A stretch of 32,000 nt of DNA from Archaeoglobus fulgidus DSM 4304 (GCF_000008665.1 NC_000917.1:1320001-1352000), one strand, 5' to 3'. Positions 1 to 25,381 are shown, counted from the first letter of the stretch. The notes: a model not told the origin generated them from the letters alone. Translations and numbers: made by a program.

Positions 1-265
1 GAGGGGAGTTGTGGAGCACACCGCAAAAACAAAAAGAACGCTTAAAGACGAGCAGGAATACATAGTTTCGGCAATCTCGAACGTTGGTAACGTAATAGCC
101 AGAAATCTTCTGGATTACTTCCAGACGATAGAGAACATTGCAACGGCAGACGAGGAGGAGCTGGCGAAGGTGCCGAAGGTTGGGAAGAAAATTGCAAAGA
201 GGATAAGGCGTGTTATGACCACACCCTACAGTGAGGCGGGTTTTTACGATAGCGAAAGCTTTTAA
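1..265 (+). CDS. 3' end of an XPF/Hef-type (ERCC4 family) nuclease, consisting of the C-terminal tandem helix-hairpin-helix domain. The gene is open to the window edge.
   Basis: The frame is open from nt 2. VGNVIARNLLDYFQTIENIATADEEELAKVPKVGKKIAKRIRRV reads as two HhH motifs, as found at the C-termini of archaeal XPF/Hef. The stop is at 263-265. Confidence 0.55.
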   Translation, partial: RGVVEHTAKTKRTLKDEQEYIVSAISNVGNVIARNLLDYFQTIENIATADEEELAKVPKVGKKIAKRIRRVMTTPYSEAGFYDSESF

Positions 266-291
266 TTCACTTTTTGGTTAAAGCATTTCAG

Positions 292-364
292 GCCACGGTA
301 GCTCAGCAGGAAGAGCGCGTGCTTGGTAAGCACGAGGTCCCGGGTTCAAATCCCGGCCGTGGCT
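292..364 (+). tRNA. tRNA-Thr (anticodon GGU)
   Basis: Canonical 73-nt cloverleaf read by hand: acceptor GCCACGG/CCGTGGC, D stem GCTC/GAGC, anticodon stem CGTGC/GCACG with loop TTGGTAA, T arm CCGGG-TTCAAAT-CCCGG, discriminator T. A T-rich tract follows. No CCA is encoded. Confidence 0.9.
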
Positions 365-425
365 TGCTTTATTTTCAGTTCGCTGGATTTATCTCTCAGG
401 CAGGATAAACCTGCTTTAAAGCCTA

Positions 426-698
426 TCAAAGCCCGAACTCCTCTATGAACTCCCTTATCTTCTGATACTTCTCCAGAAACCTGAAGCCTTTATCGGTGAG
501 GGAGTAATACCTCCTCCCGCTTTCGTCCTGAATCTCCCTGACAAGCCCTTTCTTAACCAATTCGTCCATGTAGCGGTTGAAGTTCTGCGTTGAGAGGTTT
601 GAGAATCGCAGCAAAGGTGTAGGGAGGATGGAGTTGCCGTGCTTCCTTATGATTGAGAGAATGTCGTATATGATTTCCAGCCTGTCTCTCCTCGTCAT
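426..698 (-). CDS. Small winged-helix DNA-binding protein, a putative transcriptional regulator of COG3432/HTH_45-like type.
   Basis: 90 aa. The pattern LSIIRKHGN..TPLLRFSNLSTQNFNRYMDELVKKGLVREI....RRYYSLTDKGFRFLEKY is a helix-turn-helix plus beta-wing. The start lies 9 nt after the stop of the upstream 7-TM gene, so the two are probably co-transcribed. Confidence 0.65.
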   Translation of the reverse strand: MTRRDRLEIIYDILSIIRKHGNSILPTPLLRFSNLSTQNFNRYMDELVKKGLVREIQDESGRRYYSLTDKGFRFLEKYQKIREFIEEFGL

Positions 699-707
699 TT
701 GACCACC

Positions 708-1391
708 TCAGAGCTTTCTGAGCACTCTGTATGCGATTATGAGGATTACCGCAACTGAGAGAGTGTAGATGGCAAATCTGAACTCCAATGGCAGGAATCT
801 GAAGGTCAGGGAGATGTTGAGCAGCCAGAAGACGAAAAGCAGGATGTAGAGGGGATAAGCTCTCTTCGACCTGCTCTCATGTCGGAAATGGCTGTAATTA
901 ACGAATATCGCAGCAACAAGCAGGAAAACAAGCGCAAGCTGTGAAATCAGGAAGACGAGGGGCATCCTTGAAAGGAGCGAAGTCAGGGCGATGACCAGAG
1001 CAACTCCGTTTATCACAACCTCGCCCGGAAACCTCTCCAGCCACCTCCAGAGAAGGCTGTAAATTGTGTAAAGGATGGCAGCTGATCCTGAGTAAGCGAG
1101 AAAGGCCATGCTGAAGGCCATAATCCCCCTCAATCCTTCCAGACTGATTTCCTCAAACATTACTCCCGATGCGGAGAGCAGGAGAACAACGAATCTCAGG
1201 AAGTAGGCGAGGCCGAGGAAGAGGAAGGTGTTCGAGAAGAAATGGAATCCCCTATAGTCGGAAAGCTTGTAAACCTCCCTCAGCCTGTGGTAAATCAAAA
1301 AGCAGATTAGGAAAATTATCGAGGAGTAGAGGGCTTCAGCTGCGATGAACTCCAGCGGTGGTAGCTTGGGTGGTATCATCGGTGGTGGCAT
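708..1391 (-). CDS. Integral membrane protein of unknown function, about 7 predicted TM helices.
   Basis: 227 aa with seven hydrophobic 18-25 aa stretches separated by short charged loops. I recognise no catalytic motif. It is the first gene of a two-gene minus-strand unit with the wHTH gene. Confidence 0.6.
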   Translation of the reverse strand: MPPPMIPPKLPPLEFIAAEALYSSIIFLICFLIYHRLREVYKLSDYRGFHFFSNTFLFLGLAYFLRFVVLLLSASGVMFEEISLEGLRGIMAFSMAFLAYSGSAAILYTIYSLLWRWLERFPGEVVINGVALVIALTSLLSRMPLVFLISQLALVFLLVAAIFVNYSHFRHESRSKRAYPLYILLFVFWLLNISLTFRFLPLEFRFAIYTLSVAVILIIAYRVLRKL

Positions 1392-1412
1392 GAGCCCAAT
1401 TAGACGGGGAAG

Positions 1413-1420
1413 TTTATAAA
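1413..1420 (-). promoter_or_regulatory. Palindromic TATA box (TTTATAAA) for the minus-strand 7-TM/wHTH unit, probably giving a leaderless or very short-leader mRNA.
   Basis: TTTATAAA lies 21 nt from ATG 1391 on the minus strand, a spacing typical of archaeal leaderless transcripts. Confidence 0.4.
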
Positions 1421-1423
1421 GAG

Positions 1424-1468
1424 AATGGACTTTTGATGCACATTTTCCTTTCTTCCCGCTTTTATAGC
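1424..1468 (+). promoter_or_regulatory. Copy 1 of the conserved box AATGGAC-N5-ATGCACAT, followed by a pyrimidine-rich spacer and a TTTATA box. Promoter of the ferredoxin operon.
   Basis: AATGGAC (1424-1430) and nt 1435-1468 (34 nt) match 4124-4130 and 4135-4168 exactly; only the four spacer bases 1431-1434 differ. TTTATA is at 1461-1466. TTAGGAGGTGAT lies 7 nt before GTG 1503. Confidence 0.6.
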
Positions 1469-1478
1469 ACCTCAGCGA

Positions 1479-1712
1479 TTGCGGTTAGGAGGTGATTCAG
1501 AAGTGGTCGTGGAGCAGATAAGCGGATGCATTGGTTGCGGGACATGTGTTGAAGTGTGCCCTACCGATGTTTTCCGGCTTGAAGGTGGGAGGGCAGTAAT
1601 CAAGTATCCCGAAGACTGTCAGATTTGCCACCTATGCCGGCTTTACTGTCCGGTGGATGCAATCACAATCTCGCCAGAGAAGTCACTTCCTGTAATCGTT
1701 GCGTGGGGATGA
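1479..1712 (+). CDS. 2x[4Fe-4S] ferredoxin.
   Basis: Two CxxCxxCxxxCP motifs (CIGCGTCVEVCP and CQICHLCRLYCP). The track start at 1479 is TTG. GTG at 1503, preceded by AGGAGGTGA, is the more likely start (about 69 aa). Confidence 0.85.
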   Translation: MRLGGDSEVVVEQISGCIGCGTCVEVCPTDVFRLEGGRAVIKYPEDCQICHLCRLYCPVDAITISPEKSLPVIVAWG

Positions 1713-1767
1713 TTTATGAAAGAGCTTTTGAAAAAATACGGTTTCCTCTGGAAGAGCCTCCTGTTCG

Positions 1768-1782
1768 TTTTTTTTTTTTTTT
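1768..1782. repeat. T15 homopolymer tract between or within the ferredoxin-operon genes.
   Basis: I counted 15 consecutive T directly in the sequence. The tract separates two reading frames that would fuse with T14. Confidence 0.95.
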
Positions 1783-1848
1783 GCGGTAACAATTTACTCG
1801 CTTGACGGTTTTCCAAGGCGGACTGCGTTAAAGGAGGCTATCTCCTTT

Positions 1849-2400
1849 ATGACCGTTCTCTCCTTCACACTGATGGTCAACCAGTTTTACCTCACGAGGG
1901 GCTTTAGGCTAATCGAAGGGAAGGGAAGGATGAGCTACATCGTAAAAGCGCACAGGTTGTTCGGATACATCTCAGTCGGCTTTCTGCTATTCCATCCTCT
2001 TCTTGAGGTTCTTCCGAGGCAGTTTGAAGGAAGCATACAGCCATTCGATGCTTTCTGGAAAATAATCACCACAGACAATTCGGCCATACTGCTGGGAATC
2101 GCTGGATGGGCTGTCATGCTAACGCTGGCAGTAACATCAGTTTTGCGAAAAAGGCTTTTCAAAAATTACAGGAAATGGAGGACGTTTCACGGTATTCTCG
2201 CTGTTGTCTTGATTACAGTGGTGGGATACCACGTTTTGGTTCTGGGGAGGCACTCAAGTCTGGCTATGAAGGCGTTCTATGCCGTTTTGCTGGCTGGAGG
2301 TTATGTGACGATGATTAAAACCTATGTTTTTGACTTAAGGAGGGAAGAGAAATGGAAGAATCGAGGTTTAAAATTAGCAGAAGACAGTTCCTCGCCTTAG
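1849..2400 (+). CDS. Ferric-reductase-like (NOX/FRE/MsrQ-type) di-heme b membrane protein. As written, the N-terminal helices may be cut off by a frameshift.
   Basis: There are two H-x13-H pairs inside TM helices (AHRLFGYISVGFLLFHP and FHGILAVVLITVVGYHV), the bis-heme ligand pattern of ferric reductase domains. AGGAGG lies 11 nt upstream of ATG 1849. The upstream ORF 1716-1805 (MKELLKKYGFLWKSLLFVFFFF..) joins this frame if the T15 run were T14. Confidence 0.7.
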   Translation: MTVLSFTLMVNQFYLTRGFRLIEGKGRMSYIVKAHRLFGYISVGFLLFHPLLEVLPRQFEGSIQPFDAFWKIITTDNSAILLGIAGWAVMLTLAVTSVLRKRLFKNYRKWRTFHGILAVVLITVVGYHVLVLGRHSSLAMKAFYAVLLAGGYVTMIKTYVFDLRREEKWKNRGLKLAEDSSSP

Positions 2401-4079
2401 CGGGAGCTGCGGGGGTTGCTGCTTTGGGCGTCAGATTCTTTGCTGGTAATGAGCCATATGTTGAAAGAGATTATACCATTGACTCGGATAAGTTCAGGGA
2501 GGAGTTCATCACAACCGACGTGCTTGTGGTTGGAGGGGGAATGGCAGGGCTGTTTTCTGCGGTGAAAGCTCATGATGCAGGTGCGAAGGTTCTGATGGTC
2601 TCCAAGGGGCGATTGGGATGTTCGGGTCAGACGCCTTTTGCAAAGGGCTTCTTTGTGTTTGACTCAAAGACAAGCCCAGTCTCTCTTGACGAGTTCGTGG
2701 AGCTTGTGTCTCAATCCGCTCTTGGGTCTAACAACAGGGCATACACGAGACAGCTTGCCATGTATTCGAAGGACAGGGCTGAAGAGCTGAGGAAGTGGGG
2801 ATTCTTCGACTCCTCCCTTTACCACGAGCCTTTCCGCAGACCTATCGACGAGAGGGGGATCAGAGTCATGGAGAGAATTATGATTACGCATCTGATAAGG
2901 GAGAATGGAGTTATTGCAGGTGCAGCTGGCTTCAGCCTTGATGAGGAGAAGTTGTACTTTTTCAACGCCAAAAGCGTCGTTCTCTGCACCGGTGCAGGGG
3001 GATTCAAGCCTTACGGCTTCCCCATCCGGGATTTGACGCACGATGGAAGTGTCATGGCCTACGAGATTGGTGCGAGAATAACAGGCAAGGAGTGGAACGA
3101 CGGCCACACCACGAGTTCACAGTATCCCGCAGCCTGCTACGACAGCTGGCACGGGATATTCGAGAACAAGCCCTCAATTACGGGCGTTGAGATTCACCAC
3201 GATTTGGGAGTGGAGCTGAATTATGCTACCTACATAAGAGGCGGTCCGGTATCGATGGGGGGACAGATGGCAGAGGTGTCGGGTGGCCCATACGTTCCTG
3301 AGGAGTTTCGCAGGGCAGCGCCATCCGAAGGTCGAACGCAGGGGCCACCAGAAAGAGGTGAACGTCCACCACCAGGAGGAGGCGGTTATGTCGTCGGAGG
3401 AGCCTCTGCGGGAATGTCCATACACAAGTCTGAGGGGCTGGTGCCTATCAACGACAGATGTGCCACCGACATTCCGGGCCTTTACGCTGCCGGCGACGCT
3501 CTCGGATCCCACATGTCAGGTGGGATTTACACGCAAATCGGATCGTCCTTAGCGGGTTCAGCAGTTCAGGGGGCGATTGCGGGGGAGGAGGCTGCAAACT
3601 ACGCCAAGGACATAGACCTCCAGAGCATTCCCGAATCCACGGTTAGCAGGATAAGGGAGGAGATTCTTGCCCCTCTAAACAGGGATTCCGGCTACAGCCC
3701 GGCGTGGGTAACTCAGGTTTTGCAGGGAGTTATGGTTCCCAACTTCGTGCTCTACATCAAGAAAGCCAGCATACTCAGCGCTGCGTTGGCATACGTAGAG
3801 GAGCTTAGAGACCATCACGTTCCGATGCTCGTGGCAAGAGACCTGCACGAGCTGCGTTTAGCCCATGAAACCAAGAATATGATAGTGAATGCAGAAATGA
3901 AGCTGAGAGCATCACTTTTCAGGGAGGAAAGCCGTTTGAGCCACTACCGCCTTGACTATCCGGAAATTGACGATGAAAACTGGAGCGTTTGGGTTAACAT
4001 CTACAAGGGTTCTGACGGCAAAATGAAGCTGGAGAAACAGCCCTTTGGCTACTGGCCGAATGGGGACCCCATTGAGTGA
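2352..4079 (+). CDS. Tat-exported FAD-dependent oxidoreductase of the FrdA/SdhA/AprA flavoprotein superfamily.
   Basis: A twin-arginine signal (SRRQFLALAGAAGVAALG), the dinucleotide-binding fold DVLVVGGGMAGLFSAVKAHDAGAKVLMVSKG, and the C-terminal ESRLSHYRLDYPEIDDENW typical of this superfamily. AAGGAGGGA serves as the SD. The gene overlaps the upstream gene by 49 nt. Confidence 0.75.
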   Translation: MEESRFKISRRQFLALAGAAGVAALGVRFFAGNEPYVERDYTIDSDKFREEFITTDVLVVGGGMAGLFSAVKAHDAGAKVLMVSKGRLGCSGQTPFAKGFFVFDSKTSPVSLDEFVELVSQSALGSNNRAYTRQLAMYSKDRAEELRKWGFFDSSLYHEPFRRPIDERGIRVMERIMITHLIRENGVIAGAAGFSLDEEKLYFFNAKSVVLCTGAGGFKPYGFPIRDLTHDGSVMAYEIGARITGKEWNDGHTTSSQYPAACYDSWHGIFENKPSITGVEIHHDLGVELNYATYIRGGPVSMGGQMAEVSGGPYVPEEFRRAAPSEGRTQGPPERGERPPPGGGGYVVGGASAGMSIHKSEGLVPINDRCATDIPGLYAAGDALGSHMSGGIYTQIGSSLAGSAVQGAIAGEEAANYAKDIDLQSIPESTVSRIREEILAPLNRDSGYSPAWVTQVLQGVMVPNFVLYIKKASILSAALAYVEELRDHHVPMLVARDLHELRLAHETKNMIVNAEMKLRASLFREESRLSHYRLDYPEIDDENWSVWVNIYKGSDGKMKLEKQPFGYWPNGDPIE

Positions 4080-4123
4080 TTTTTCCATTTTTGCCGATTT
4101 CAGCTTTATCTCAACACCCAATA

Positions 4124-4168
4124 AATGGACAAAAGATGCACATTTTCCTTTCTTCCCGCTTTTATAGC
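4124..4168 (+). promoter_or_regulatory. Copy 2 of the conserved box plus TTTATA box. Promoter of the secreted-protein pair.
   Basis: AATGGAC-AAAAG-ATGCACATTTTCCTTTCTTCCCGCTTTTATAGC. TTTATA is at 4161-4166 and TAAGGAGGTGAT precedes ATG 4209. Confidence 0.6.
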
Positions 4169-4208
4169 CTGATTTCCTACAAATTATAGAGATTAAGGAG
4201 GTGATGGA

Positions 4209-4727
4209 ATGAGGAAAGTGCTGGCGGCGTTGCTGGCTCTGGTAGTGGTTGGGGTTGTTGCAGTATCTGCCCAAGGCTTTCATCCGGCAGTGCCAAAGCT
4301 GGAAATAAACGAGAGCAACTTTGAGGACGTGAAGGCGAAGATTCTGAGCCACCTTGAAGAGAGAGTAGAGGACCTGCAGAAGCTGAAGGAGGACGTTGAA
4401 AATGCAAATTCAGCTGATGAGCTGAAGAGCGTTATGGAGGAGCATGCTTTGAGCAGGGCGAAGGACATGACGCTTAGAAAAATTGACAGGGCTATTGAGA
4501 GGCTGGAGAGCAGCGGAAACAGTGATGCGGTAAGCGAGCTTGAATCGCTCAAGGAGAAGGTAAGCGGTGCTTCGAGCATGGAAGAGCTGAGACAAATCAT
4601 GGAGGAGTTCAGGGGAATAATGGAGGATGCTGGATTCATGAATGATGGAATGCCTCCGAAGATGCCGTGCGGTGGGATGCCTGAGGATGGGCCAAGAATG
4701 CCTAACGCAAACTCTGCAAATGCCTAA
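4209..4727 (+). CDS. Secreted alpha-helical protein of unknown function with a Met/Pro-rich C-terminal tail (paralog A).
   Basis: Sec-type signal MRKVLAALLALVVVGVVAVSAQG. Charged helical repeats (ADELKSVMEEH and SMEELRQIMEEFR). Tail GMPPKMPCGGMPEDGPRMP. Confidence 0.7.
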   Translation: MRKVLAALLALVVVGVVAVSAQGFHPAVPKLEINESNFEDVKAKILSHLEERVEDLQKLKEDVENANSADELKSVMEEHALSRAKDMTLRKIDRAIERLESSGNSDAVSELESLKEKVSGASSMEELRQIMEEFRGIMEDAGFMNDGMPPKMPCGGMPEDGPRMPNANSANA

Positions 4728-4731
4728 CAAC

Positions 4732-4746
4732 TTTTTTTATTTTTTT
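4732..4746 (+). terminator. Oligo-T tracts (T7-A-T7) between the two paralogs, a possible archaeal intrinsic terminator or attenuator.
   Basis: TTTTTTTATTTTTTT lies directly after the stop at 4725-4727. Archaeal RNAP terminates at oligo-T runs. Confidence 0.4.
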
Positions 4747-4760
4747 GAGGTGAAAATGAA

Positions 4761-5210
4761 ATGCCGGCAAGGAAACTGACCTTCATTTTAATAATAATGC
4801 TCTCTGGCGCAGCCATTCTTTCCGGATGCACTTCGCAAGGCGAGGACGTTAAACCTGAACCCAAGCCTGAGGTTGACGAAAAAGTGACAGTTCCGAATCC
4901 TGAAACCACATCAAACATCTCTGCACCAATGCCCCCTCTAAAGAACTCCACTTCTCCAGTACCCCCCGTAAACGACCTTGAAGGGGGCAAAGAGGCTCTC
5001 TTGGACATGATAAACCGAACCATTGACATGCTTGAGAGAGAAGGGGCAAGAAGTGACATAATTTCGGAACTCGAATCTCTGAAGGAGAAGGTAAGCAGCG
5101 CAACGAGCATGGAAGAGCTGAGAGAAATCATGGAGGAGTTCAGGGCGATACAGGACGATGCCGGAATCCCGAATCCTGAGATGCCCAAGAGCGCTCCCAG
5201 AGCGCCTTAA
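4761..5210 (+). CDS. Putative lipoprotein, paralog B of the preceding secreted protein.
   Basis: Signal peptide with a lipobox (AAILSGC), then a Pro/Thr-rich linker, then the shared block SELESLKEKVSSATSMEELREIMEEFRAIQDDAG. Confidence 0.7.
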   Translation: MPARKLTFILIIMLSGAAILSGCTSQGEDVKPEPKPEVDEKVTVPNPETTSNISAPMPPLKNSTSPVPPVNDLEGGKEALLDMINRTIDMLEREGARSDIISELESLKEKVSSATSMEELREIMEEFRAIQDDAGIPNPEMPKSAPRAP

Positions 5211-5266
5211 TTTTTCCGAATTCGGATGGAGAAGTTTTTAAACTCATTTTTTGAGGTGTCCCTGGG

Positions 5267-5849
5267 ATGAGGAGGGATTTTTTAAAGTGTATGGCTATCG
5301 GTGGGCTGACAGTCGCTGGAATGGGTTGTATCACGAGTCGGAGAGTTTTTGTTGCAGAAAAACCAGCTTTCCCGATTGTGGACACAAACCAGACAAAATG
5401 CAATTTTAAAGAAATTCCCTGCCCTGAACCCGGAGAGCCATTCTACGGGTAGGATGCGCAGTTTACAGTAAACCCGCCGGAATATGCTGATAACGGCGAT
5501 GGACGGTTACTGATAAAGCCACGGGTTTGATGTGGGTCAAGGATGACAGCGGCTACTGCATGAACTGGAAGGAGGCTCTGGAGCACGTTCAGAGGATGAA
5601 CGAGCAGAGCTATCTCGGCTACAGCGATTGTAGGCTCCAAATGCGAAGGAGCTACAATCAATTGTAGATTACACGAGGGCACTGGATGCAAGGGACCCCT
5701 CAAAGCGTGGTGCTGCGATAGACCCGATATTCAACGTGACTCCAATAATCAACGAGGGGGGCGATGTTTCCAGCTATCCGCACGCTCGTGGCCCGCAGGG
5801 GGATGTTGTAAGAATATGCAACTTCCTTAGGTTGGTTAGGGATACTTGA
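5267..5849 (+). pseudogene. Decayed gene for a Tat-signal DUF1566 (Lcl C-terminal domain-like) secreted protein.
   Basis: MRRDFLKCMAIGGLTVAG is a Tat signal. PIVDTNQTKC...CPEPGEPFYG is followed by an in-frame TAG where family members have Q (FYGQDAQ). The sequence then continues across two 1-nt frameshifts (near 5501-5506 and 5636-5640) as DAQFTVNPPEYADNGDG / TVTDKATGLMWVKDDSGYCMNWKEALEHV..YLGYSDCRL / PNAKELQSIVDYTRA...GPQGDVVRICNFLRLVRD. The family match is from memory of the DUF1566 consensus. Confidence 0.6.
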
Positions 5850-5936
5850 GTTTACGGTCAGCAGTTTTTCCCATCGACATAAGAGTACGGATAAAGGTTT
5901 AGGAGTCATCAACCTAAAATTACCTGGTGAAAGTTC

Positions 5937-6704
5937 ATGAGGAAATCAGCCTATGAAAAATACCTGAAAAAACCGCTAACACCATTGCCGTGGGAACATC
6001 GACTGATACTGGAGAAAGGAGAAGATATCCCTTTAGAAGGAGTTTTTAGCTTCTTGGAAAAGGACAAACTGCTCGATGAGGGCTATCTGCCCTACGAGAA
6101 CGGCTTCCACCACTTCCCTGACGGCAGAGCTTACGTCGCCTGTCTGACGAAGATGCCGAAGGTTAGTGCAGAGATGATTTACTGGTGGTTCAGGTGGCAT
6201 TCTGAAGATGCAATTCGCTACCAGATATGGTATCCCGGCAAACATTTTGACGTTAGAACAGATGAGACCGGCTCCACTCACTACGTAACGGAAGACGTCG
6301 GCACGGGAAAGCAAAGAATTGTCATCAGGTTCATGACTCCTGCAGAGTTCGGATTCAGCGAGGAAAAGCTTGAAATGATTGATCTGAAGAGAAATGCCAT
6401 TATATGCGCCAGAGTCGGGGCAGAGATTCCCGGACATGCAGTGTGGCACACCTGGATGTGTCACTGCGCCAGAGAGGCTGAGAAAGGAGTTGAGCTGAGG
6501 AGTAGGTTCTGGATCGGGGAAGAGATAGAGGTTAGCGGCCCTCTCACCTCGATCCTAACAAGATTGCTCAATATACTGTCAGTGAAGAAAAGAATGATTC
6601 CCGGAAATATTGGAAAGCACATGTTCCATCACTGCTCTCAGGAGTATCACAATCTGGCAGAGATTTTGCCTGAGGTTTATGAGGAATTCGGAGGTATGAG
6701 CTGA
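5937..6704 (+). CDS. Conserved hypothetical protein, rich in His/Cys/Trp. It may be a metal-dependent hydrolase (a faint resemblance to the DAPG/phloretin hydrolase family, not verified).
   Basis: A 255-aa ORF with a GGTGA SD. Motifs MIYWWFRWHSEDAIRYQIWYPGKH, HAVWHTWMCHC and HMFHHCSQEYHNL. The function call rests on weak recollection only. Confidence 0.5.
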   Translation: MRKSAYEKYLKKPLTPLPWEHRLILEKGEDIPLEGVFSFLEKDKLLDEGYLPYENGFHHFPDGRAYVACLTKMPKVSAEMIYWWFRWHSEDAIRYQIWYPGKHFDVRTDETGSTHYVTEDVGTGKQRIVIRFMTPAEFGFSEEKLEMIDLKRNAIICARVGAEIPGHAVWHTWMCHCAREAEKGVELRSRFWIGEEIEVSGPLTSILTRLLNILSVKKRMIPGNIGKHMFHHCSQEYHNLAEILPEVYEEFGGMS

Positions 6705-6710
6705 GTGCAG

Positions 6711-6751
6711 ATGGACAAAAGATGCACATTTTCTTTTCCTCTTTCTTAAAT
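6711..6751 (+). promoter_or_regulatory. Copy 3 of the conserved box with a TATA-like CTTAAAT. Promoter of the minimal histidine kinase gene.
   Basis: ATGGAC-AAAAG-ATGCACATTTTCTTTTCCTCTTTCTTAAAT, starting 7 nt after the stop of the upstream gene. ATG 6784 lies 33 nt after the TATA-like box. Confidence 0.5.
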
Positions 6752-6783
6752 GCCCTTGAACCCTTTGTTGGTTGGTGAGTGAA

Positions 6784-7443
6784 ATGAATCTGACCAGCTT
6801 CGAGGAGGCTGAGAGGAAGGTGCTGAAGTTGATCTTGCTGTCCAATCGAATGCTGAGGCATGACGTGATGAATGCCGTGACCTCTGCACTGCTTTTTCTG
6901 GAACTCTTCGAGAAGACGGGGAGGGAAGAGCACTTGGAAAGGGCGAAAGCATCCATAAACAGAGCAGTTTTTGCTGTGAGAAACTCCAAGTTCGTCGAAG
7001 AGCTTGCCATTGGAGAAGAGCCAAGATACATTAAGGTGGAGGAAATTGCGAGGGAAGTTGCGAGGAACTTCAGCATACCCGTTCTGGTTGAGGGGGAGTG
7101 CCAGGTATTTGGCGATAGGGGGATTTTCGGGGCGATATTCGAGAACCTGTTCCAGAACGCCGTCCAGCACTCAGGGACTGACAGAGTGGTGGTTAAGGTG
7201 GAGAGAAAGCGGGGGAAGTGCTTTATTAGAGTAAAGGACTACGGAAAGGGAATTCCTGACGAGATTAAGGACAAGATTTTCAGTGCAGGATTCAGCAGCG
7301 GAGACTCGGCAGGATCAGGAATGGGGCTGCACCTCGTTAAGGAGATTGTTGAAAGTATTGGAGGGAAAATATGGGTCGAGGATAACGAGCCGTGTGGGGC
7401 AGTATTCGTCATGGAGTTCCCGCGAAGGTTCTTCCTGAGTTAA
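6784..7443 (+). CDS. Minimal soluble histidine kinase with DHp and HATPase_c only. It has no sensor or TM domain.
   Basis: H-box LRHDVMNAVTSAL about 30 aa from the N-terminus. N box NLFQNAVQH, G1 DYGKGIP, G2 GSGMGLHLV. The ATG at 6784 is preferred over the TTG at 6772. Confidence 0.8.
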   Translation: MNLTSFEEAERKVLKLILLSNRMLRHDVMNAVTSALLFLELFEKTGREEHLERAKASINRAVFAVRNSKFVEELAIGEEPRYIKVEEIAREVARNFSIPVLVEGECQVFGDRGIFGAIFENLFQNAVQHSGTDRVVVKVERKRGKCFIRVKDYGKGIPDEIKDKIFSAGFSSGDSAGSGMGLHLVKEIVESIGGKIWVEDNEPCGAVFVMEFPRRFFLS

Positions 7444-7610
7444 AGCATTTTGGTTCAAACAATTCTGGTCTGTGCGGTTACGGCTTCAAGAGCTTCTCTG
7501 ACGAGAATTTCCAAGTTGCTCCTTTTCTCAGACTTCCGACAACCACAACCTTCGCCCTTTGCAGATAAAATCCTTTATTGTTTTCATCTATAATGAACTT
7601 AATCTGGAAA

Positions 7611-7653
7611 AATGGACCAAAAATGCACATCTTTCTTTCTCCCAGGTTATATA
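7611..7653 (+). promoter_or_regulatory. Copy 4 of the conserved box plus TTATATA box. Promoter of the surface-protein/ABC operon.
   Basis: AATGGAC-CAAAA-ATGCACATCTTTCTTTCTCCCAGGTTATATA. ATG 7675 lies 21 nt after the TATA, giving a near-leaderless transcript. Confidence 0.55.
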
Positions 7654-7674
7654 CTCCCCGCTGCCAGTTAAGGC

Positions 7675-9144
7675 ATGAGAGGAATTTGGATTGCTGGACT
7701 CGTAATGCTTCTCTTAATTGTCCCTTCGGTGGCGGAGGAAAACAGCAGCATTGCTATCCAGAACCTCAACGTGGAGCCGCAGAGGCTTTTCGTAGGAGAT
7801 TCCGCAATCGTTACCGTGACTCTCTACAACCCCCTCGAAAGCGCTGTTAAGGTCTCCTCAGTGAGCGTTTTGGGATCCGGTATATCCTACGACTCCTTCG
7901 AGCTCGGCTACATACCGCCGAAGTCCACTCACACCTTCAGCTTCGCCGTTAAAGCTGTAAAGGAAGGTGTGCACAACGTAGAGGTTGCGTTTTACACGGA
8001 AAGCGGTGCGGTGAGGAGCTACTTCACGCTTTTTGTTGAAAACAGGATGCCTGAAATCGCCTTTAGCGAGAACGTGAAGGTTGGGGAGGTCAACAACCTG
8101 AGCCTCATCATCTCCTCTCCCGTAGAGATAGAGAATGTCGTCATCGACCCCCTCTTCGAGTCAGAGCCCGACAGAATCATCCTTTCGTCGGTTTCGGGAA
8201 CCGCTGAAGTCCCCATCAGATTCTTCGGCGAGCGGAGCGATTACGAGTTCAGAGTCTCCTTCTACAGCGGCAACAACTACCACAGCTACACCGCTAAGCT
8301 CACACCTGCCTTTGAAGAGGGGAGTGAGCTTGCCGTGAGCGTCTCGGTTCCTCAGTCCTCGGCCTTCCTCTACGACGTGGTGGAGATTTCCGCAACAATC
8401 ACCAACCTGAAAGATGATGCTGTCAGCGCAATCAAATTCTCCGCCTCGTCGAACAACGGAAAGGTCCTGCTCTCCACCGACGAAATTGCTGAACTTGAAA
8501 GCGGCGAAAGCTCGGAAGTCACCCTCCTTTACTCCCCAGAACGGAGTGGGAGGGATGTGATAACCCTTGCAATCAGCTACAAAGACGGGATGGGAAAAGA
8601 GAGGACGCTGGAGAAGGCTGTAAACATCGATGTTCAGGACAGCTCCGCCGTCGACGTTTCGGGAGTTGAAATAGAGGCAAAGGCGACATCCTCAGCCTCC
8701 GCTCCGCCGAGGGGGATGTTTGGTCCCACATCAAGCTCGGTCTCAACGAGAGTGGAGATAACTGTAAGCGGCGAAGTTGTGAACAGGGGATTCAGCTACG
8801 CAAAGAACGTCCTCGTTTACCTTGACTTCGGAAGCGATACCGAGGAGTACTTTGTGGGAGAGGTGGAGCCCTCAGACTCGGACAGCTTCAGCATTCCCGC
8901 AAGCGGAAGTGAGAGGAGTGTTAAGGTTGTTGTGGAGTGGACCAACGAGCTTGGAGAGGTGCACAGCATTTCCAAGAGCTACCAGCTCAATCCCATAACG
9001 GTAAGCACAACATCACCACCGCAGCGCCAGAGCCTTCTGACACCTCTGAATCTGGCAGCAGTCGCAATTGCTGCCGTCGGTGGAGTTCTGGTTTTCAGAA
9101 AATGGAGGAGCAGGAGAAAGAATGAAAGTAATAGAGCTGGTTGA
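7675..9144 (+). CDS. Cell-surface protein with repeated beta-sandwich (CARDB/COG1361 S-layer-like) modules, an N-terminal signal peptide and a C-terminal TM anchor.
   Basis: Signal MRGIWIAGLVMLLLIVPSVAEE. Repeated segments of the type LFVGDSAIVTVTLYNP / YDVVEISATITNL. C-terminal LNLAAVAIAAVGGVLVF followed by RKWRSRRK. Confidence 0.7.
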   Translation: MRGIWIAGLVMLLLIVPSVAEENSSIAIQNLNVEPQRLFVGDSAIVTVTLYNPLESAVKVSSVSVLGSGISYDSFELGYIPPKSTHTFSFAVKAVKEGVHNVEVAFYTESGAVRSYFTLFVENRMPEIAFSENVKVGEVNNLSLIISSPVEIENVVIDPLFESEPDRIILSSVSGTAEVPIRFFGERSDYEFRVSFYSGNNYHSYTAKLTPAFEEGSELAVSVSVPQSSAFLYDVVEISATITNLKDDAVSAIKFSASSNNGKVLLSTDEIAELESGESSEVTLLYSPERSGRDVITLAISYKDGMGKERTLEKAVNIDVQDSSAVDVSGVEIEAKATSSASAPPRGMFGPTSSSVSTRVEITVSGEVVNRGFSYAKNVLVYLDFGSDTEEYFVGEVEPSDSDSFSIPASGSERSVKVVVEWTNELGEVHSISKSYQLNPITVSTTSPPQRQSLLTPLNLAAVAIAAVGGVLVFRKWRSRRKNESNRAG

Positions 9145-9802
9145 TGTTTACAAAATTTACAGGACTGCATACTACGAGGTCCACGCCCTCGATGGTGTGA
9201 GCATGGAGGTTGAAGCAGGGGAGTTCGTTGCGATAATGGGGCCGTCGGGCAGCGGCAAGTCAACGCTGCTCAACATGATAGGCTGCCTCGACAAACCGAC
9301 GAAGGGCGAGGTAATCATAAACGGAGTCAAAACGTCAGGGCTGAGCGACAGAGAGCTCACCAAGCTTCGCAGAGATTCGATTGGCTTCATCTTTCAGCAG
9401 TACAATTTGATACCTACTCTCACCGCCCTGGAGAATGTGGAGCTGCCGATGATTTTCCGCGGTGTTGCGAGGGCGGAGAGGGAGAGGAGGGCGAAAGAGC
9501 TTCTCAAAGTGGTGGGAATTGAGGAGCTTGCGGACAGAAGGCCAAGGGAGATGAGTGGAGGGCAGCAGCAGAGAGTGGCAATTGCAAGGGCTCTGGCAAA
9601 CAACCCGAAAATTTTGCTGTGTGATGAGCCCACTGGAAACCTCGACACCAAGTCTGGGAGGCAGGTTATGGGCATTCTCAAAAACCTGAATGAGGAGAAT
9701 GGGGTTACCGTCGTTCTCGTCACCCACGACCCATCTCTTTCGGAATACGCTGACAGAGTCATCAGAATCAGGGACGGGAAGGTGGTGGAGGATGTATATT
9801 GA
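9122..9802 (+). CDS. ABC transporter ATP-binding protein, MacB/LolD-like (COG1136).
   Basis: Walker A GPSGSGKST, Q-loop, signature MSGGQQQRVAIARAL, Walker B ILLCDEPTGNLD, H-loop VTHD. The true start is ATG 9122 (MKVIELVDVYKIY), overlapping the upstream gene by 23 nt. Confidence 0.9.
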   Translation: MKVIELVDVYKIYRTAYYEVHALDGVSMEVEAGEFVAIMGPSGSGKSTLLNMIGCLDKPTKGEVIINGVKTSGLSDRELTKLRRDSIGFIFQQYNLIPTLTALENVELPMIFRGVARAERERRAKELLKVVGIEELADRRPREMSGGQQQRVAIARALANNPKILLCDEPTGNLDTKSGRQVMGILKNLNEENGVTVVLVTHDPSLSEYADRVIRIRDGKVVEDVY

Positions 9803-10919
9803 GCTCGCCGTCAGAAACCTCGAGAGGGCGAGGGCGAGGAGTATTCTGGCCGTGGTCGGAATAATCATCGGAGTTGTGGCTGTAGCCTCCATCGGCATCT
9901 TCGGCAACGCGATGAAGCAGACCGTGCTGGAAAGGTTCGAGGATCAGGCGGATACCATAGTGATAACTCCGAGATACACAGAGGGTTATTCCGGGATAGA
10001 GGAGGACGATTTCGAGCTGATAAAGAGGGTTGAGAGAATAGAGTACGCCATTGCGGTAAAGGATGAGAGGGGGGAGGTCGAGTACGAGGACAGGAAAGCC
10101 TTCCTTACGGTTTACGGAGTGGACGGGGATGACCTTGAGCTGCTTTACGACGCCTACGAGGGCAGCATAAAGCTCAAGGGCACTGCGGTCGTGGGATACA
10201 GGCTTGCGGAGGACTTCGGGCTGGAGGTGGGGGACAAAATCTCTGTCGAGGGCAAAACGTTCAAGGTTGCAGCTATACTTGAGCAACAGGGGATGGGGGG
10301 AGGAATCAACCCGGACATGGCCGTTTTCATCTCAATGGAGGACTTCGACAGGCTCTACGATCAGGAGGGCTACACCTCGGTTATAGTGGAGGCGGAGAGT
10401 CTGGAATACATCGAAGCGATCGAGGAGGAAATTGACAGCACGCTGAACAAAAAGGATGAGAAGGTGGACATAAGAGACTTCGAATCGCTGATAGAGAGCG
10501 TTGAAGAGAGCCTGAACTCGATGACGCAGTTCCTGATGGCAATAGCCGCAGTATCGCTTCTCGTTGCTGGAGTGAGCATCCTGAACATCATGCTGATGTC
10601 AACGATCGAGAGGACGAAGGAGATTGGTGTTATGAGAGCCATAGGAGCGTTCAGAGAAAACATTATGATGATATTTCTGCTTGAAGCGCTGATTCTCGGA
10701 TTGACGGGCAGCGTTTTTGGGGCTGTTATGAGCGTTGCGGGCGGTTATGCTATAATCTCGATGATGGGTTTCTCCACAGCATACGTCCTCCATCCATCCT
10801 CCGCACTCTACATTGCAGAGGGCTTTGCGGTGGGAGTTCTTACAGCAGTTGCGAGCGGTCTTTACCCGGCATGGAAGGCGAGCAAGCTTGAGCCGATTGA
10901 GGCGCTGAGGTACGAATGA
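9792..10919 (+). CDS. ABC transporter permease of the FtsX/MacB type, with a large extracytoplasmic domain.
   Basis: TM1 (ILAVVGIIIGVVAVASIGIF), then an extracytoplasmic domain of about 220 aa, then three C-terminal TMs with the FtsX-type motif ERTKEIGVMRAIGA. ATG 9792 overlaps the ATPase gene by 11 nt. Confidence 0.85.
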   Translation: MYIELAVRNLERARARSILAVVGIIIGVVAVASIGIFGNAMKQTVLERFEDQADTIVITPRYTEGYSGIEEDDFELIKRVERIEYAIAVKDERGEVEYEDRKAFLTVYGVDGDDLELLYDAYEGSIKLKGTAVVGYRLAEDFGLEVGDKISVEGKTFKVAAILEQQGMGGGINPDMAVFISMEDFDRLYDQEGYTSVIVEAESLEYIEAIEEEIDSTLNKKDEKVDIRDFESLIESVEESLNSMTQFLMAIAAVSLLVAGVSILNIMLMSTIERTKEIGVMRAIGAFRENIMMIFLLEALILGLTGSVFGAVMSVAGGYAIISMMGFSTAYVLHPSSALYIAEGFAVGVLTAVASGLYPAWKASKLEPIEALRYE

Positions 10920-12421: not shown

Positions 12422-13885
12422 CTATCTCTCCCACGTCTTCCTTAAAAACTCCCTTATCACTTCCGACTCAATCCATCCCCTGTCAAGGTCCCTGATGAGC
12501 TTCTCAATCCTCTTTACCTGCTCGATAATCTTCTTCCTGACTTTCTCGTCTTCAACCTCCATTTCTGTTATGAGCTGCAAGGCTGCGAGTGGATTGCGGA
12601 TGTGGTCAACGAGAATGGCGAACTGCTCGATGTTCCTCTCAATCTGCTCGTAGGCGAGAAACTTCTCCTCTTCGAGCTGAATGGCGTTCAGGGCAAAAGC
12701 CACGTCTGCTGAGAGCGTAGTTAGAATTTCAACCTCGTCTTCGGAGAAGGGTCTGTCCGAGTGGATTATAATGACTCCCTTAACCTTTTCATCGTAAACC
12801 ATGGGAATCGTGAGGGCATAAAAGCTGCCATGAACGCTGATGTGCTTGCAGCCCTTTATGTGCCTGTCAGGTTCAAGTCTCACGGTTCTCTTGCTTGTAA
12901 TGGCCTCCTTTACGCACTCAGAACCCTCAGCACCCTTTGGATAGAAGACCATCTCGCCATCCTTAGCCACTCCGACGAAAACTGAGGGGTAAAATTCCGA
13001 GAGCTTTTCCACTATTGCTTCAACAAGGTCGTCTGCATCCCTCTCTCTGACAAGAAGGTCGTTGATGTCGTTGACAATTCTCAAAAGCCTGTTCAGCCTT
13101 TTAATCTCCTCCTCATACTCCTTTCTCTTGGTTACATCTCTCGCTATCCCCTGAACCCCCACCAGCTTTCCATTCTCGTAAATCGGTCTTGTTTTCACTT
13201 CAAGCCACAGCAATCTTCCATCCTTGGTTTTGCATAGAACCTCGAAGGGCTCTTCATTTGGCTCGCTCTGAAGAGTTCTTTTCATTCTCTCTTTTACGAG
13301 TTCAGCAGAATCGCCTACCAGCACATCCCAGATGGTAAGCTTTCCAAGGTCTTCAAGAGAGTAGCCGAATCCCTCTATTGCTGCTCTGTTTACGGCTGTG
13401 AACCTCCCCTCAAGGTCGTGGACATAAAGAAAGTCATTGGCGTTTTCCCATAAGTCTCTATACCTTCTTTCACTTTCCTCAAGCTTTCTGTAGGCTTCTT
13501 CTATCTCTTTCTCCCTTTTCTTCTTCTCAATAGCGTTTTTCACAGCCAGCGGGAGGCGGCGAATGTGCTTGGGCGATTTTAGAACGTAGTCGTCGAATCC
13601 CTCTTTCATCGCCTCAACAGCAATTTCCTCATCGCCTGTCAGTGTGAGCATAATCACTGGCGTAAAGGGCGAAACCTGCTTTACAGCCTTTAAAACGTCG
13701 AAGCCTGTCCCCCACCTCAGCCTGTAGTCGGTGATGACAGCATCAAAGTTGAAGTTTTCGAGAGCTTTCTCCAGATCCTCTTTTGAGAGTATTTCAACCA
13801 CTTCCAAATCCGCAAACTCTTTTTTAAGCTCTCTCACAGCCAGAATTCTGTCATCCGGGTTGTCATCGGCTATAAGTATTCTCAT
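12422..13885 (-). CDS. Response-regulator receiver - PAS - GAF - DHp (H-box) protein lacking an ATPase domain.
   Basis: REC: MRILIADDNPDD, VITDYRL, MLTLTG, VLKSP. PAS: ENANDFLYVHDLEGRFTAVNRAA..GIARDVTKRK. A GAF-like region follows. The C-terminal H-box FAILVDHIRNPLAAL is followed by only about 55 aa. ATG 13885 (GGAGGT SD) is preferred over 13906. Confidence 0.8.
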   Translation of the reverse strand: MRILIADDNPDDRILAVRELKKEFADLEVVEILSKEDLEKALENFNFDAVITDYRLRWGTGFDVLKAVKQVSPFTPVIMLTLTGDEEIAVEAMKEGFDDYVLKSPKHIRRLPLAVKNAIEKKKREKEIEEAYRKLEESERRYRDLWENANDFLYVHDLEGRFTAVNRAAIEGFGYSLEDLGKLTIWDVLVGDSAELVKERMKRTLQSEPNEEPFEVLCKTKDGRLLWLEVKTRPIYENGKLVGVQGIARDVTKRKEYEEEIKRLNRLLRIVNDINDLLVRERDADDLVEAIVEKLSEFYPSVFVGVAKDGEMVFYPKGAEGSECVKEAITSKRTVRLEPDRHIKGCKHISVHGSFYALTIPMVYDEKVKGVIIIHSDRPFSEDEVEILTTLSADVAFALNAIQLEEEKFLAYEQIERNIEQFAILVDHIRNPLAALQLITEMEVEDEKVRKKIIEQVKRIEKLIRDLDRGWIESEVIREFLRKTWER

Positions 13886-13886
13886 C

Positions 13887-14288
13887 TCAAACCTCCGGTT
13901 TCTCATTAAGAATTAGCCAGTAAATATTCATATGTTTGGTGAGATTCAGTAAATCCTCAAAGCGGACAGGCTTCACAAGGTAGGAGTTTGCTCCGAGGTC
14001 GTAAGCTCTGTTTATGTCCTCTCCATTTCTTGATGAAGTTAAAACAACCACGGGAATCCTCTTCAGCCTTTCCTTCGATTTAACCCACTTCAGAACTTCA
14101 AAACCCGAAACCTTTGGAAGCTTTAAGTCAAGGAGAATCAGCACGGGCTTGTTTTCTTGCAGGTAGCTTATCGCCTCCTCCCCATCCTTCGCCACATCAA
14201 GGGGATTGATTATCTTGGCCTTCTCAAAAGCCCTCTTAATCATGAAAACATCGTCTGGATTATCCTCAACCAGCAGGATTCTGTCCAT
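13887..14288 (-). CDS. Single-domain CheY-like response regulator (Rcp1-like subfamily).
   Basis: MDRILLVEDNPDDVFMIKRAF...LILLDLKLPKVSGFEVL...RIPVVVLTSS...YLVKP...IYWLILNEKP. The track ORF extends 41 codons upstream, but MDRILLVED (ATG 14288) with an A/T-rich box about 45 nt upstream is the plausible start. Confidence 0.85.
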   Translation of the reverse strand: MDRILLVEDNPDDVFMIKRAFEKAKIINPLDVAKDGEEAISYLQENKPVLILLDLKLPKVSGFEVLKWVKSKERLKRIPVVVLTSSRNGEDINRAYDLGANSYLVKPVRFEDLLNLTKHMNIYWLILNEKPEV

Positions 14289-14386
14289 CTTCACACCTCT
14301 GATTATCCTGCGATTGACACTATCCCATTCAAAATTAAATATTTTTCGTGTGATTACCGCTGCTCCGCCAACATAATCAAAAACTT

Positions 14387-17304: not shown

Positions 17305-17520
17305 ATGCCAACCAAAACGATAACCATAACTCTCGAAGCCTACGAAAGATTGAAAAGAGAAAAAAGAGAGGGAGAGAGCTTCAGCGACGTTATAATCAGG
17401 CTCACAGAGAAAAGGAGAGATTTGCTTGAATTTGCCGGTAAATGGAAAGATTCTGGAGAGGAAATCGAGAAGATAATCTTAGAAGGCAGGAAGGAGTTCG
17501 ATAAACATGTTCTGTCTTGA
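17305..17520 (+). CDS. vapB: VapB-type antitoxin (type II TA).
   Basis: 71 aa. TITITLEAYERLKREKREGESFSDVIIRL. It overlaps the downstream PIN gene by 14 nt. An ATTATAAAC box lies 22-30 nt upstream (leaderless), followed by the direct repeats AAACAT-AAACGT-AAACAT. Confidence 0.75.
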   Translation: MPTKTITITLEAYERLKREKREGESFSDVIIRLTEKRRDLLEFAGKWKDSGEEIEKIILEGRKEFDKHVLS

Positions 17521-17899
17521 AACCACGTTTCTAATTGATCTGCTGAGAGGGAGAGATGAGGCATTGAAGTTCTACGCAAAAATTAGAGATTCGAAGCTAT
17601 ACACCACGTCCATTTCAGCGTGGGAGCTCCTAAGAGGGCCAAAGCTCATTGGGAAAGATAAAGAATTTGAAGTGGCTGTTGAGCTGCTTGAGAGTCTTGA
17701 TGTTCTTCCGTTCTCTTTCAATTCGGCAAAAATTGCCGTAGAAATTGAAAAAGATTTGAGAGAGAAAGGCATGGAAGTTAATCTAATAGACGTGCTCATT
17801 GCATCTGTTGCAATGGAACACAGTCTTAAACTTGTAACGAGAGATGAGCACTTCAGCAGGATAAAGGGGCTTGAAGTTGAAAGGTATCGCCCCGAATAA
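17507..17899 (+). CDS. vapC: PIN-domain ribonuclease toxin VapC.
   Basis: 130 aa. The N-terminal MFCLETTFLIDLLRG carries E in the place of the first acidic residue, followed by the later acidic residues (SAWELLRG, NLIDVLIASVA, LVTRDEHF), as expected for a PIN fold. Confidence 0.8.
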   Translation: MFCLETTFLIDLLRGRDEALKFYAKIRDSKLYTTSISAWELLRGPKLIGKDKEFEVAVELLESLDVLPFSFNSAKIAVEIEKDLREKGMEVNLIDVLIASVAMEHSLKLVTRDEHFSRIKGLEVERYRPE

Positions 17900-25262: not shown

Positions 25263-25308
25263 TTTACCTTGAAAAATTAAACTTTGCGATTTAAGGAACA
25301 ATATTGCA

Positions 25309-25381
25309 AGCCGCCGGCGGGATTTGAACCCGCGACCTGGTGATTACGAATCACCCGCTCTGCCAGCTGAGCCACGGCGGC
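25309..25381 (-). tRNA. tRNA-Thr (anticodon CGU)
   Basis: The reverse complement folds as a canonical 73-nt cloverleaf: acceptor GCCGCCG/CGGCGGC, D stem GCTC/GAGC, anticodon stem GGTGA/TCACC with loop TTCGTAA, T arm GCGGG-TTCAAAT-CCCGC, discriminator T. Confidence 0.9.

Follow-up and report, generated by a model that had tools for sequence, protein, structure and literature searches.

A conserved promoter module and a divergent winged-helix/membrane protein gene pair: a candidate envelope regulon in Archaeoglobus fulgidus

We analysed a 32,000-nucleotide (nt) stretch of the Archaeoglobus fulgidus DSM 4304 genome (GCF_000008665.1, NC_000917.1:1320001-1352000), hereafter called the window. It carries four copies of a 45-nt promoter module, each comprising a 19-nt box, a pyrimidine-rich block and a TATA-like octamer, and, divergent from the first copy, a gene pair encoding a 90-amino-acid (aa) winged helix-turn-helix (wHTH) protein and a seven-transmembrane-helix (7TM) protein. 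The module has a rigid architecture, is conserved at orthologous promoters, is specific to such promoters and is strictly associated with the gene pair. The box is very probably a conserved cis-regulatory protein-binding site that defines a regulon, and the adjacent wHTH protein (426-698) probably binds it. Taken as a whole, the reading in which module, wHTH protein and 7TM sensor form a factor-dependent promoter system with an envelope regulon appears moderately probable, and the promoter geometry together with an apparently weak transcription factor B recognition element (BRE) tips the balance slightly towards activation as the mode of regulation. A sequence-only reading of this DNA had proposed a cis-regulatory box upstream of BRE and TATA that defines an envelope regulon, and the orthologous sites and the specificity of the box support it. 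That reading also took the regulon to be undescribed, and a literature search (locus tags AF1459-AF1470, HTH_45, 7TM plus wHTH) indeed retrieved nothing on the regulon, the motif or the 7TM/HTH_45 pair.

Architecture and specificity of the promoter module

The pattern ATGGAC-N5-ATGCACAT has four exact copies in the window, starting at 1425, 4125, 6711 and 7612, all on the + strand and all intergenic. Exact matches to ATGGACNNNNNATGCACAT occupy 1425-1443, 4125-4143, 6711-6729 and 7612-7630, and no further match with up to two mismatches is present elsewhere in the 32 kb. The octamer ATGCACAT is restricted to the same four sites within the window, and the exact box pattern gave no match in 100 dinucleotide shuffles; chance alone would thus be expected to produce none. 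The two hexamers of the box (ATG-S-AC; ATGGAC and ATGCAC) start 11 bp apart. The TATA-like octamer starts exactly 16 nt past the box in 4/4 copies (1460, 4160, 6746 and 7647), which gives a layout of a 19-nt box, a 16-nt pyrimidine-rich block and TTTTATAG, TTAAATGC or TTATATAC. Start codons on the + strand follow at 1503, 4209, 6784 and 7675, 22-41 nt past the module ends. Copy 1 (1424-1468, +) thus consists of a box at 1425-1443, a pyrimidine block at 1444-1459 and a TATA-like octamer at 1460-1467; the octamers of copies 2 (4124-4168, +), 3 (6710-6754, +) and 4 (7611-7655, +) occupy 4160-4167, 6746-6753 and 7647-7654, respectively.

A repeat search groups the four copies into a single 45-nt family. 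Copy 2 is 91% identical to copy 1, with which it shares 34 identical bases, (G)ATGCACAT...TATAGC, and for copies 3 and 4 the identity to copy 1 is 69-71%. When the copies were aligned with 85-nt flanks, similarity extended from (A/G)ATGGAC to just past the TATA-like octamer, with none beyond the 45 nt. The exact matches therefore confirm what had been read from the sequence at the outset, namely four intergenic copies on one strand at these positions, half-sites ATGGAC and ATGCAC 11 bp apart, near-identity of copies 1 and 2 through the TATA box, and a TATA-like box 15-17 nt past the box.

The same architecture is found in other genomes. In total, 17 promoters from about 10 lineages align without an indel from box to TATA, with the consensus ATGGAY-N5-ATGCACAT, TTTnTTTCTTC, four variable bases and TTAWATA. 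The information content is 25.8 bits for the box, 16.3 bits for the pyrimidine block and 8.7 bits for the TATA. The box ends 16 nt before the TATA-like octamer, assigned as TATA by sequence only, in 17/17 promoters, and BRE and TATA are therefore left free. As in an upstream activating sequence (UAS), the site lies upstream of BRE and TATA without overlapping them, and its phasing is fixed. The pyrimidine block sits at the BRE position, where module promoters read CTTCCCGC and the like; a handful of other promoters in the window have purine-rich BREs, for instance GGAAAACA/TTATAAAC, a small sample that gives no consensus for the organism. The typical place of archaeal activators is just upstream of the BRE, at promoters with a non-consensus or weak BRE or TATA (PMC5512572). 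The box itself can be read in two ways, as a direct repeat ATGGAC/ATGCAC or as an imperfect inverted repeat ATGnnC-N7-GnnCAT, and the sequences fit both.

Several other accounts of the repeat were rejected. Structured RNA was discarded since a search of window positions 1-9000 at E <= 1 found no Rfam family at the boxes, returning a tRNA and two sub-threshold chance matches away from them. A small minus-strand open reading frame (ORF) starting at the ATG of ATGTGCAT was dismissed; its peptides would be 9-10 aa long and, owing to the variable N5 spacer, are unconserved. Firing of the TATA boxes in the minus direction was likewise set aside, the orientation of the box to the downstream gene being constant in all lineages. 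Finally, a longer repeat or mobile element was rejected. There is no similarity outside the 45 nt, a scan of viral contigs for the module gave no match, inverted termini of the kind seen in miniature inverted-repeat transposable elements (MITEs) are lacking, and all copies sit at promoters of one gene set. The possibility raised beforehand that the blocks are fragments of a longer dispersed or mobile repeat is thus not borne out.

The gene pair and its relatives

The 7TM gene (708-1391, - strand) is divergent from copy 1 and encodes a 227-aa protein, the proposed sensor partner, for which no Pfam or NCBIfam family was matched. Its AlphaFold2 model (predicted local distance difference test score, pLDDT, 86) is a seven-helix bundle whose fold matches are generic 7TM/GPCR-like only. 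The wHTH gene (426-698, - strand), which encodes the candidate box-binding regulator, starts 9 nt past the 7TM gene. The TATA box of this operon, TTTATAAA (1413-1420, - strand), lies 4-5 nt from the ATGGAC end of box 1, according to where the A/T run is taken to end, and about 21 nt before the ATG at 1391; the mRNA is therefore probably leaderless, to judge from this spacing. TTTATAA followed by 5 nt and the box is kept at the pair promoter in nine lineages (the window, L023, L025, L027, L031, L032, L034, L007 and L019). In L031 and L032, the box is kept there though no divergent target gene is present. A tRNA-Thr(GGT) gene (291-365) is located directly downstream of the wHTH gene.

The wHTH protein was modelled with high confidence (pLDDT 94.8) as helices 3-19, 26-33 and 37-49, a β-hairpin wing and a long C-terminal helix 69-87. 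The best Foldseek matches are 4hw0 (E 3e-5, TM-score 0.68) and 1r7j (TM-score 0.73), both from the Sso10a family (Sso10a-2 and Sso10a), followed by AspA, F93 and MarR proteins, and 4hw0 is also the best PDB sequence match with phmmer (E 6e-4). The protein scores 65 bits on Pfam HTH_45, which 24/24 subfamily members match, and 59.0 bits on the NCBIfam Sso10a_fam profile (NF053610, cut-off 60). It also reaches 24.2 bits on Pfam EarA (PF07381, cut-off 22), through residues 45-76 only (profile 57-88 of 90). Some homologues are automatically named 'EarA family'. Membership in EarA was rejected: the match is partial, 6/24 subfamily members reach it vs 24/24 for HTH_45, and there are no archaellum genes in the loci. 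By these profile scores, HTH_45 is the real family of the wHTH protein.

A word-indexed search with the membrane protein returned 18 homologues that are 31-68% identical, and all the taxon-labelled ones are from Archaeoglobi. In every lineage fetched, the 7TM gene is followed by a wHTH gene of 90-92 aa, uncalled but present in L027 and a pseudogene in L035. About 10 other lineages, among them Archaeoglobi and DPANN archaea, share the pair, which adjoins the same target set, but a different member of it in each lineage. The neighbouring target is a secreted protein in L023, the ferredoxin operon in L025, a secreted protein and a CARDB-ABC-MacB unit in L027, CARDB-ABC-MacB in L029, a secreted protein and an ABC-CARDB-MacB/FtsX unit in L034, and ABC-ABC2-CARDB in L032 and L036. 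The box reads ATGGACTTAAGATGCACAT in L023, where a copy with two mismatches also precedes an Lcl_C lipoprotein gene, ATGGATCAAAGATGCACAT before the ferredoxin operon of L025, and ATGGATTTGTGATGCACAT and ATGGATCTCAAATGCACAT in L027. Variant boxes are found in L031, L034 and L036. L037, the contig of a 71%-identical CARDB homologue, served as a prediction test, as it was picked by this homologue and then checked for boxes. It harbors two exact ATGGAY-N5-ATGCACAT boxes, before a small histidine kinase gene and the CARDB operon. These are the orthologues of copies 3 (1799 in L037) and 4 (2671 in L037, with a further orthologue at 5413 in L027). Thus, as expected of a regulon, the motif is present at the four window units and at orthologous sites in L023, L025, L027, L031, L034, L036, L037, L007 and L019.

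Strict-pattern scans of genome and metagenome collections yielded 12 loci, mostly bacterial coding matches (Coprococcus, Oribacterium, Saccharibacteria), of which L005, L007 and L019 are real. In L007, a Woesearchaeota metagenome-assembled genome (MAG), the 7TM gene is divergent from an exact ATGGAC-N5-ATGCACAT box, a pyrimidine block, a TATA and a gene for a small secreted helical protein. L019, a metagenome contig of 1.5 kb, comprises the 7TM and wHTH genes and, divergent from the 7TM gene, the same series of exact box, pyrimidine block, TATA and small secreted helical protein. A profile search with the 7TM alignment reached 512 cluster representatives, 80 of them at E <= 1e-30, and all that bear a name come from MAGs of Nanoarchaeota and Woesearchaeota. 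Within the wHTH subfamily, identity is 55-99% across Archaeoglobi, Woese-, Nano- and Altiarchaeota and Diapherotrites. The description of the regulon as local applies to the DNA read, and the system reaches beyond Archaeoglobales.

The box is specific as well as widespread. With up to one mismatch, the A. fulgidus pattern has six matches in 143 kb of non-fulgidus loci, vs 0.046 expected, and all are at homologous target promoters. A position weight matrix (PWM) scan of 188 kb on both strands at a threshold of at least 11 bits returned only promoter-position sites next to the gene pair, with no off-target site. The checks suggested with the sequence-only reading thus came out in its favor. Relatives with proteins of only 31-71% identity have the box at orthologous promoters; the box is always intergenic and directed toward the downstream gene, and it was not seen elsewhere in the 188 kb. 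The choice of the protein encoded at 426-698 as candidate also appears well placed, since the wHTH and 7TM genes are the only ones that always accompany the box.

The region of helix 37-49 of the wHTH protein (SNLSTQNFNRYM) is almost invariant overall and shows no variation within Archaeoglobi. The most divergent helix, SNLSSNSFSEYY, is that of L034, where the box is changed to GTGGAC-N5-GTGTACAT, with G for the initial A in both half-sites. That the change in the helix goes with the change in the box is no more than suggestive, being a single case.

Two loci call for separate comment. In L029 (9968-10112), the 7TM gene is annotated with a start about 37 codons upstream of the true one, and the actual intergenic region contains two degenerate boxes, ATGGAACTTTGGTATAT and GTGGACTTCTGGTTCACAC, the second of which is at an unusual spacing of 2 nt from the TATA. 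In L035 (4901-8960), an in-frame stop interrupts the wHTH gene, the MacB/FtsX gene is broken into two parts and there is no detectable box; all parts of the system appear to be decaying jointly.

Proposed mechanism and rival explanations

In the model that follows, the binder, the direction of control and the signal are inferences. The 90-aa Sso10a-like wHTH protein, as the candidate factor, would bind the 19-bp box just upstream of a poor BRE. The bound factor would help to recruit transcription factor B (TFB) and the TATA-binding protein (TBP), and four units would then be switched on: the ferredoxin/haem-membrane/periplasmic flavoprotein unit, the secreted helical protein with its Lcl_C lipoprotein, the minimal histidine kinase, and the surface protein with its MacB-type ABC exporter. 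The co-transcribed 7TM protein would be a putative sensor that controls the wHTH protein, a coupling suggested by synteny. The same box lies 5 nt from the TATA of the pair operon on its other side and may serve autoregulation, with a geometry that would favor self-repression; the retention of TATA, 5 nt and box even in lineages without a divergent target points to such autoregulation.

A broader statement can be made more tentatively. Box, Sso10a-like wHTH protein and 7TM protein might represent an unrecognised, widespread archaeal signal-transduction module, with the promoter modules doubling as portable recombination sites by which target cassettes, the 2.7-kb ferredoxin/flavoprotein unit for example, would come and go, which we regard as possible rather than probable. 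At this same tentative level, a 7TM receptor might control a soluble factor which, through a near-invariant operator, turns on secreted and surface proteins and exporters. At 50% identity, the 7TM family comprises at least 512 clusters, ranging from Archaeoglobi to Woesearchaeota and Nanoarchaeota.

Several points weigh against the wHTH-dependent activation set out above. The boxes of L029 and L032 are degenerate despite an intact wHTH gene. The pyrimidine block is as conserved as the box, beyond what a simple operator of two half-sites would show. A symmetric wHTH dimer is expected on an inverted, not a direct, repeat, and among small wHTH proteins of the MarR and PadR types repressors are the commoner form. 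Furthermore, the literature treats Sso10a proteins as architectural or chromatin proteins and not as specific regulators (PMC4941522).

Repression is accordingly a serious rival to activation, although we consider it rather unlikely. Binder and sites would be the same and the sign opposite: the wHTH protein would repress, and a signal sensed at the membrane would release it and de-repress the units. The closest structural relatives of the wHTH protein include many MarR-type repressors, a box 5 nt from the pair's own TATA is classic repressor geometry, and the conserved phasing of box and TATA would fit a repressor acting through DNA bending or TFB blockage as well. At the targets, however, the pyrimidine-rich, non-consensus BREs are as expected for activator-dependent promoters (PMC5512572). 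Moreover, the box ends 16 nt upstream of the TATA in all 17 target promoters, leaving BRE, TATA and start site uncovered, and activation thus remains the favored sign.

A third account accepts the operator and assigns it to another binder, either a response regulator of the box-controlled kinase or an alternative TFB or TBP that recognises the extended pyrimidine block, the wHTH/7TM pair being one more target. The 11-bp direct repeats with an A/T-rich spacer do resemble OmpR/PhoB-type boxes, a histidine kinase gene lies behind copy 3, REC-domain proteins are encoded at 12422-14411, and the pyrimidine block beside the TATA calls for an explanation. The kinase is, however, present only in the A. 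fulgidus and L037 lineages, and no locus encodes a REC protein with a DNA-binding domain. The wHTH and 7TM proteins are the only ones that co-occur with the box everywhere, including the 1.5 kb of L019, and the box is kept at the pair's promoter in L031 and L032, where there is no divergent target. A binder other than the wHTH protein is therefore improbable, and the histidine kinase and REC proteins were rejected as main binder as they are absent from most lineages. The wHTH protein remains the preferred candidate.

Target units, strain variants and likeness to known systems

The first target unit (1503-4079, +), headed by copy 1, encodes a 2x[4Fe-4S] ferredoxin (1503-1712, +), a Ferric_reduct membrane protein (1717-2400, +) whose gene carries a frameshift within a T15 run, and a fumarate-reductase-type FAD flavoprotein with a twin-arginine translocation (Tat) signal (2352-4079, +). 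The 15-T homopolymer (1768-1786) splits the Ferric_reduct gene into ORFs starting at 1717 and spanning 1849-2400, whereas the near-identical contig L012 has 13 T and an intact 229-aa protein. The frameshift could reflect a pseudogene, slippage-prone phase variation or a sequencing error. Behind copy 2 lies the gene of a 172-aa secreted helical protein (4209-4727, +), which represents the most widely conserved target family, with homologues 30-69% identical behind boxes in L023, L027 and L031. In the single published mention retrieved, AF1464, matched to 4209-4727 by gene order, is down-regulated on CO plus sulfate (PMC4543118). The rest of the copy 2 unit is a rearranged region (4761-5900, +) in which a 149-aa lipoprotein ORF of chimeric make-up (4761-5210) is followed by what remains of an Lcl_C gene, now a pseudogene (about 5267-5900), at a place where type-B strains, defined below, have a single intact 224-aa Lcl_C gene. 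The N-terminus of the 149-aa ORF is that of the intact type-B lipoprotein, and its C-terminus duplicates that of the 172-aa protein (119-nt repeat, 4536-4654 and 5067-5185). Thus, of the two genes that had been read as a secreted-protein pair, 4209-4727 is real, but the second, 4761-5210, is a chimera.

Copy 3 precedes the gene of a soluble minimal histidine kinase of 219 aa (6784-7443, +) with an H-box and a HATPase_c domain. This gene is intact in the window and L012 and is broken into ORFs of 176 and 40 aa in all type-B strains (6337-6996 in L008). The minimal kinase has no sensor domain, and a REC-PAS-GAF-HisKA protein (12422-13906, -) stops right after HisKA and lacks the ATPase domain. 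The two proteins may be parts of a split phosphorelay. Finally, the unit behind copy 4 (7675-10919, +) comprises a CARDB/S-layer-type protein (7675-9144), an ABC ATPase (to 9802) and a MacB/FtsX-type permease (to 10919). The products had nearly all been assigned to the envelope; the ferredoxin and the histidine kinase, however, are cytoplasmic. Judged from these predicted products, the regulon seems to have a cell-envelope flavor.

Ten loci of A. fulgidus-like strains were obtained through contigs that encode the wHTH protein, and the box 19-mers are invariant in all of them. The flanks of the window are 99.5% identical to DSM 8774 (CP006577), and the identity to a metagenome contig is 99.97%. 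Type A (the window, L012 and L017) has four box copies. Type B (L005, L008-L011 and L013-L016), which includes most related strains and MAGs, DSM 8774 among them, lacks the ferredoxin/flavoprotein unit and has a single hybrid promoter made of the left side of copy 1 and the right flank of copy 2. The indel (window 1424-4168; L008 about 9274; L005 about 666) is 2700 bp long and bounded by copies 1 and 2, and the overlap of the BLAST blocks equals the 34 nt that the copies share. In L025, a more distant lineage, the ferredoxin operon occupies the equivalent position and is as diverged as its flanks (64-84% vs 65-91% aa identity), which marks it as an old resident. A deletion through recombination between the two promoter copies is thus the best account of type B. 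As a caveat to the regulon reading, the near-identity of copies 1 and 2 goes with this 2.7-kb strain indel, which accounts for it in part, but not for copies 3 and 4 or the wider conservation.

Other differences between strains may also reflect recombination. Between 4135 and 7482, from copy 2 to 130 nt upstream of copy 4, the window is about 95% identical to DSM 8774, vs 99.5% on either side, and a 60-nt indel is located at 7482/7483. This mosaic divergence suggests allelic replacement by recombination. At the tRNA-Thr site, DSM 8774 has an extra segment (L008 10410-16000) that is lacking from the window and encodes a tyrosine integrase, a Cdc6-like ATPase and an IS240-type transposase, probably an element integrated at the tRNA gene. 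The bounding of an exact 2700-bp polymorphism by copies that share 34 bases, the hybrid copy of type B, the divergent 4135-7482 segment and the adjoining tRNA-Thr gene with its integrase-bearing element would suit blocks that are mainly recombination or mobile-element scars, copied with the genes of a variable region. This is very improbable, as similarity stops at 45 nt, terminal inverted repeats and target duplications are lacking, viral contigs and the remainder of the 188 kb hold no copies, the module keeps fixed promoter positions in lineages 30-70% diverged in protein, including DPANN, and the old residence of the L025 ferredoxin operon makes the indel a consequence of the repeats, not their purpose.

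Elsewhere in the window, a VapB antitoxin and PIN-domain VapC toxin pair is encoded at 17305-17899, and the tRNA-Thr genes GGT and CGT (292-373 and 25300-25381) form an 82-nt inverted repeat of 80% identity, 25 kb apart.

An operator with a regulon and a one-component-like regulator is known as a kind; this instance, its breadth and its membrane partner appear new. We know of few archaeal transcription activators, of fewer with a defined operator and regulon, and of none reported to date for the envelope genes of Archaeoglobus or in DPANN archaea. The package reported here consists of a 19-bp operator with rigid TATA spacing, a 90-aa candidate regulator with a high-confidence fold, a candidate membrane sensor and four to five target families. 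If the assignment is true, the Sso10a type, known as a 'chromatin protein' family, would include sequence-specific regulators, hyperthermophiles would gain a portable inducible promoter, and an operator would have stayed nearly unchanged between distant archaeal phyla.

Parallels exist in bacteria. The boxes of OmpR/PhoB regulators, such as the Pho box, consist of two hexamers or heptamers in direct repeat, with a period of 11 bp and an A/T-rich spacer, at a fixed distance upstream of the core promoter. Unlike these systems, the present one has no receiver or OmpR-type domain and its promoter is an archaeal BRE/TATA; the REC proteins encoded in the window are devoid of DNA-binding domains, and in most lineages neither a kinase nor a REC gene lies close to the boxes. 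Membrane-linked one-component regulators are a further parallel: in the bacterial pairs of PadR and a membrane protein, and in BcrR, the DNA-binding domain works in functional coupling with a sensor in the membrane. Such a coupling is also found in ArnR and ArnR1 of Sulfolobus, which control surface and envelope genes (PMC6396743). In contrast to ArnR, the DNA-binding and membrane parts are separate polypeptides here, and the seven-helix bundle is without a known family.

The three-helix wHTH fold with a β wing and a C-terminal helix is shared with Sso10a and Sso10a-2 of Sulfolobus, AspA of pNOB8 and F93 of Sulfolobus turreted icosahedral virus (STIV). Sso10a proteins are, however, abundant crenarchaeal architectural proteins with little sequence specificity (PMC4941522), whereas the subfamily of the window appears tied to one operator and one gene neighborhood. 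UAS activation of the Ptr2/Lrp type is similar in its tandem site upstream of the BRE and its stereospecific spacing to the TATA, and it goes with a weak BRE or TATA (PMC5512572), as may also be the case for the module promoters. The wHTH protein does not belong to Lrp/AsnC, and recruitment of TBP and TFB is a proposal in the present case. EarA of Methanococcus maripaludis and Pyrococcus furiosus is also a small archaeal winged-helix activator, with four TACATA sites immediately upstream of BRE/TATA (PMC5512572, PMC10665913), and the second half of the present box, (A/G)T(G/A)(C/T)ACAT, resembles the EarA site. The targets differ, being envelope and redox genes instead of the archaellum, with no archaellum genes in any locus. 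Finally, unlike the EarA sites, the site described here is a 19-bp bipartite box with fixed phasing and a pyrimidine block, and its candidate regulator is paired with a 7TM protein.

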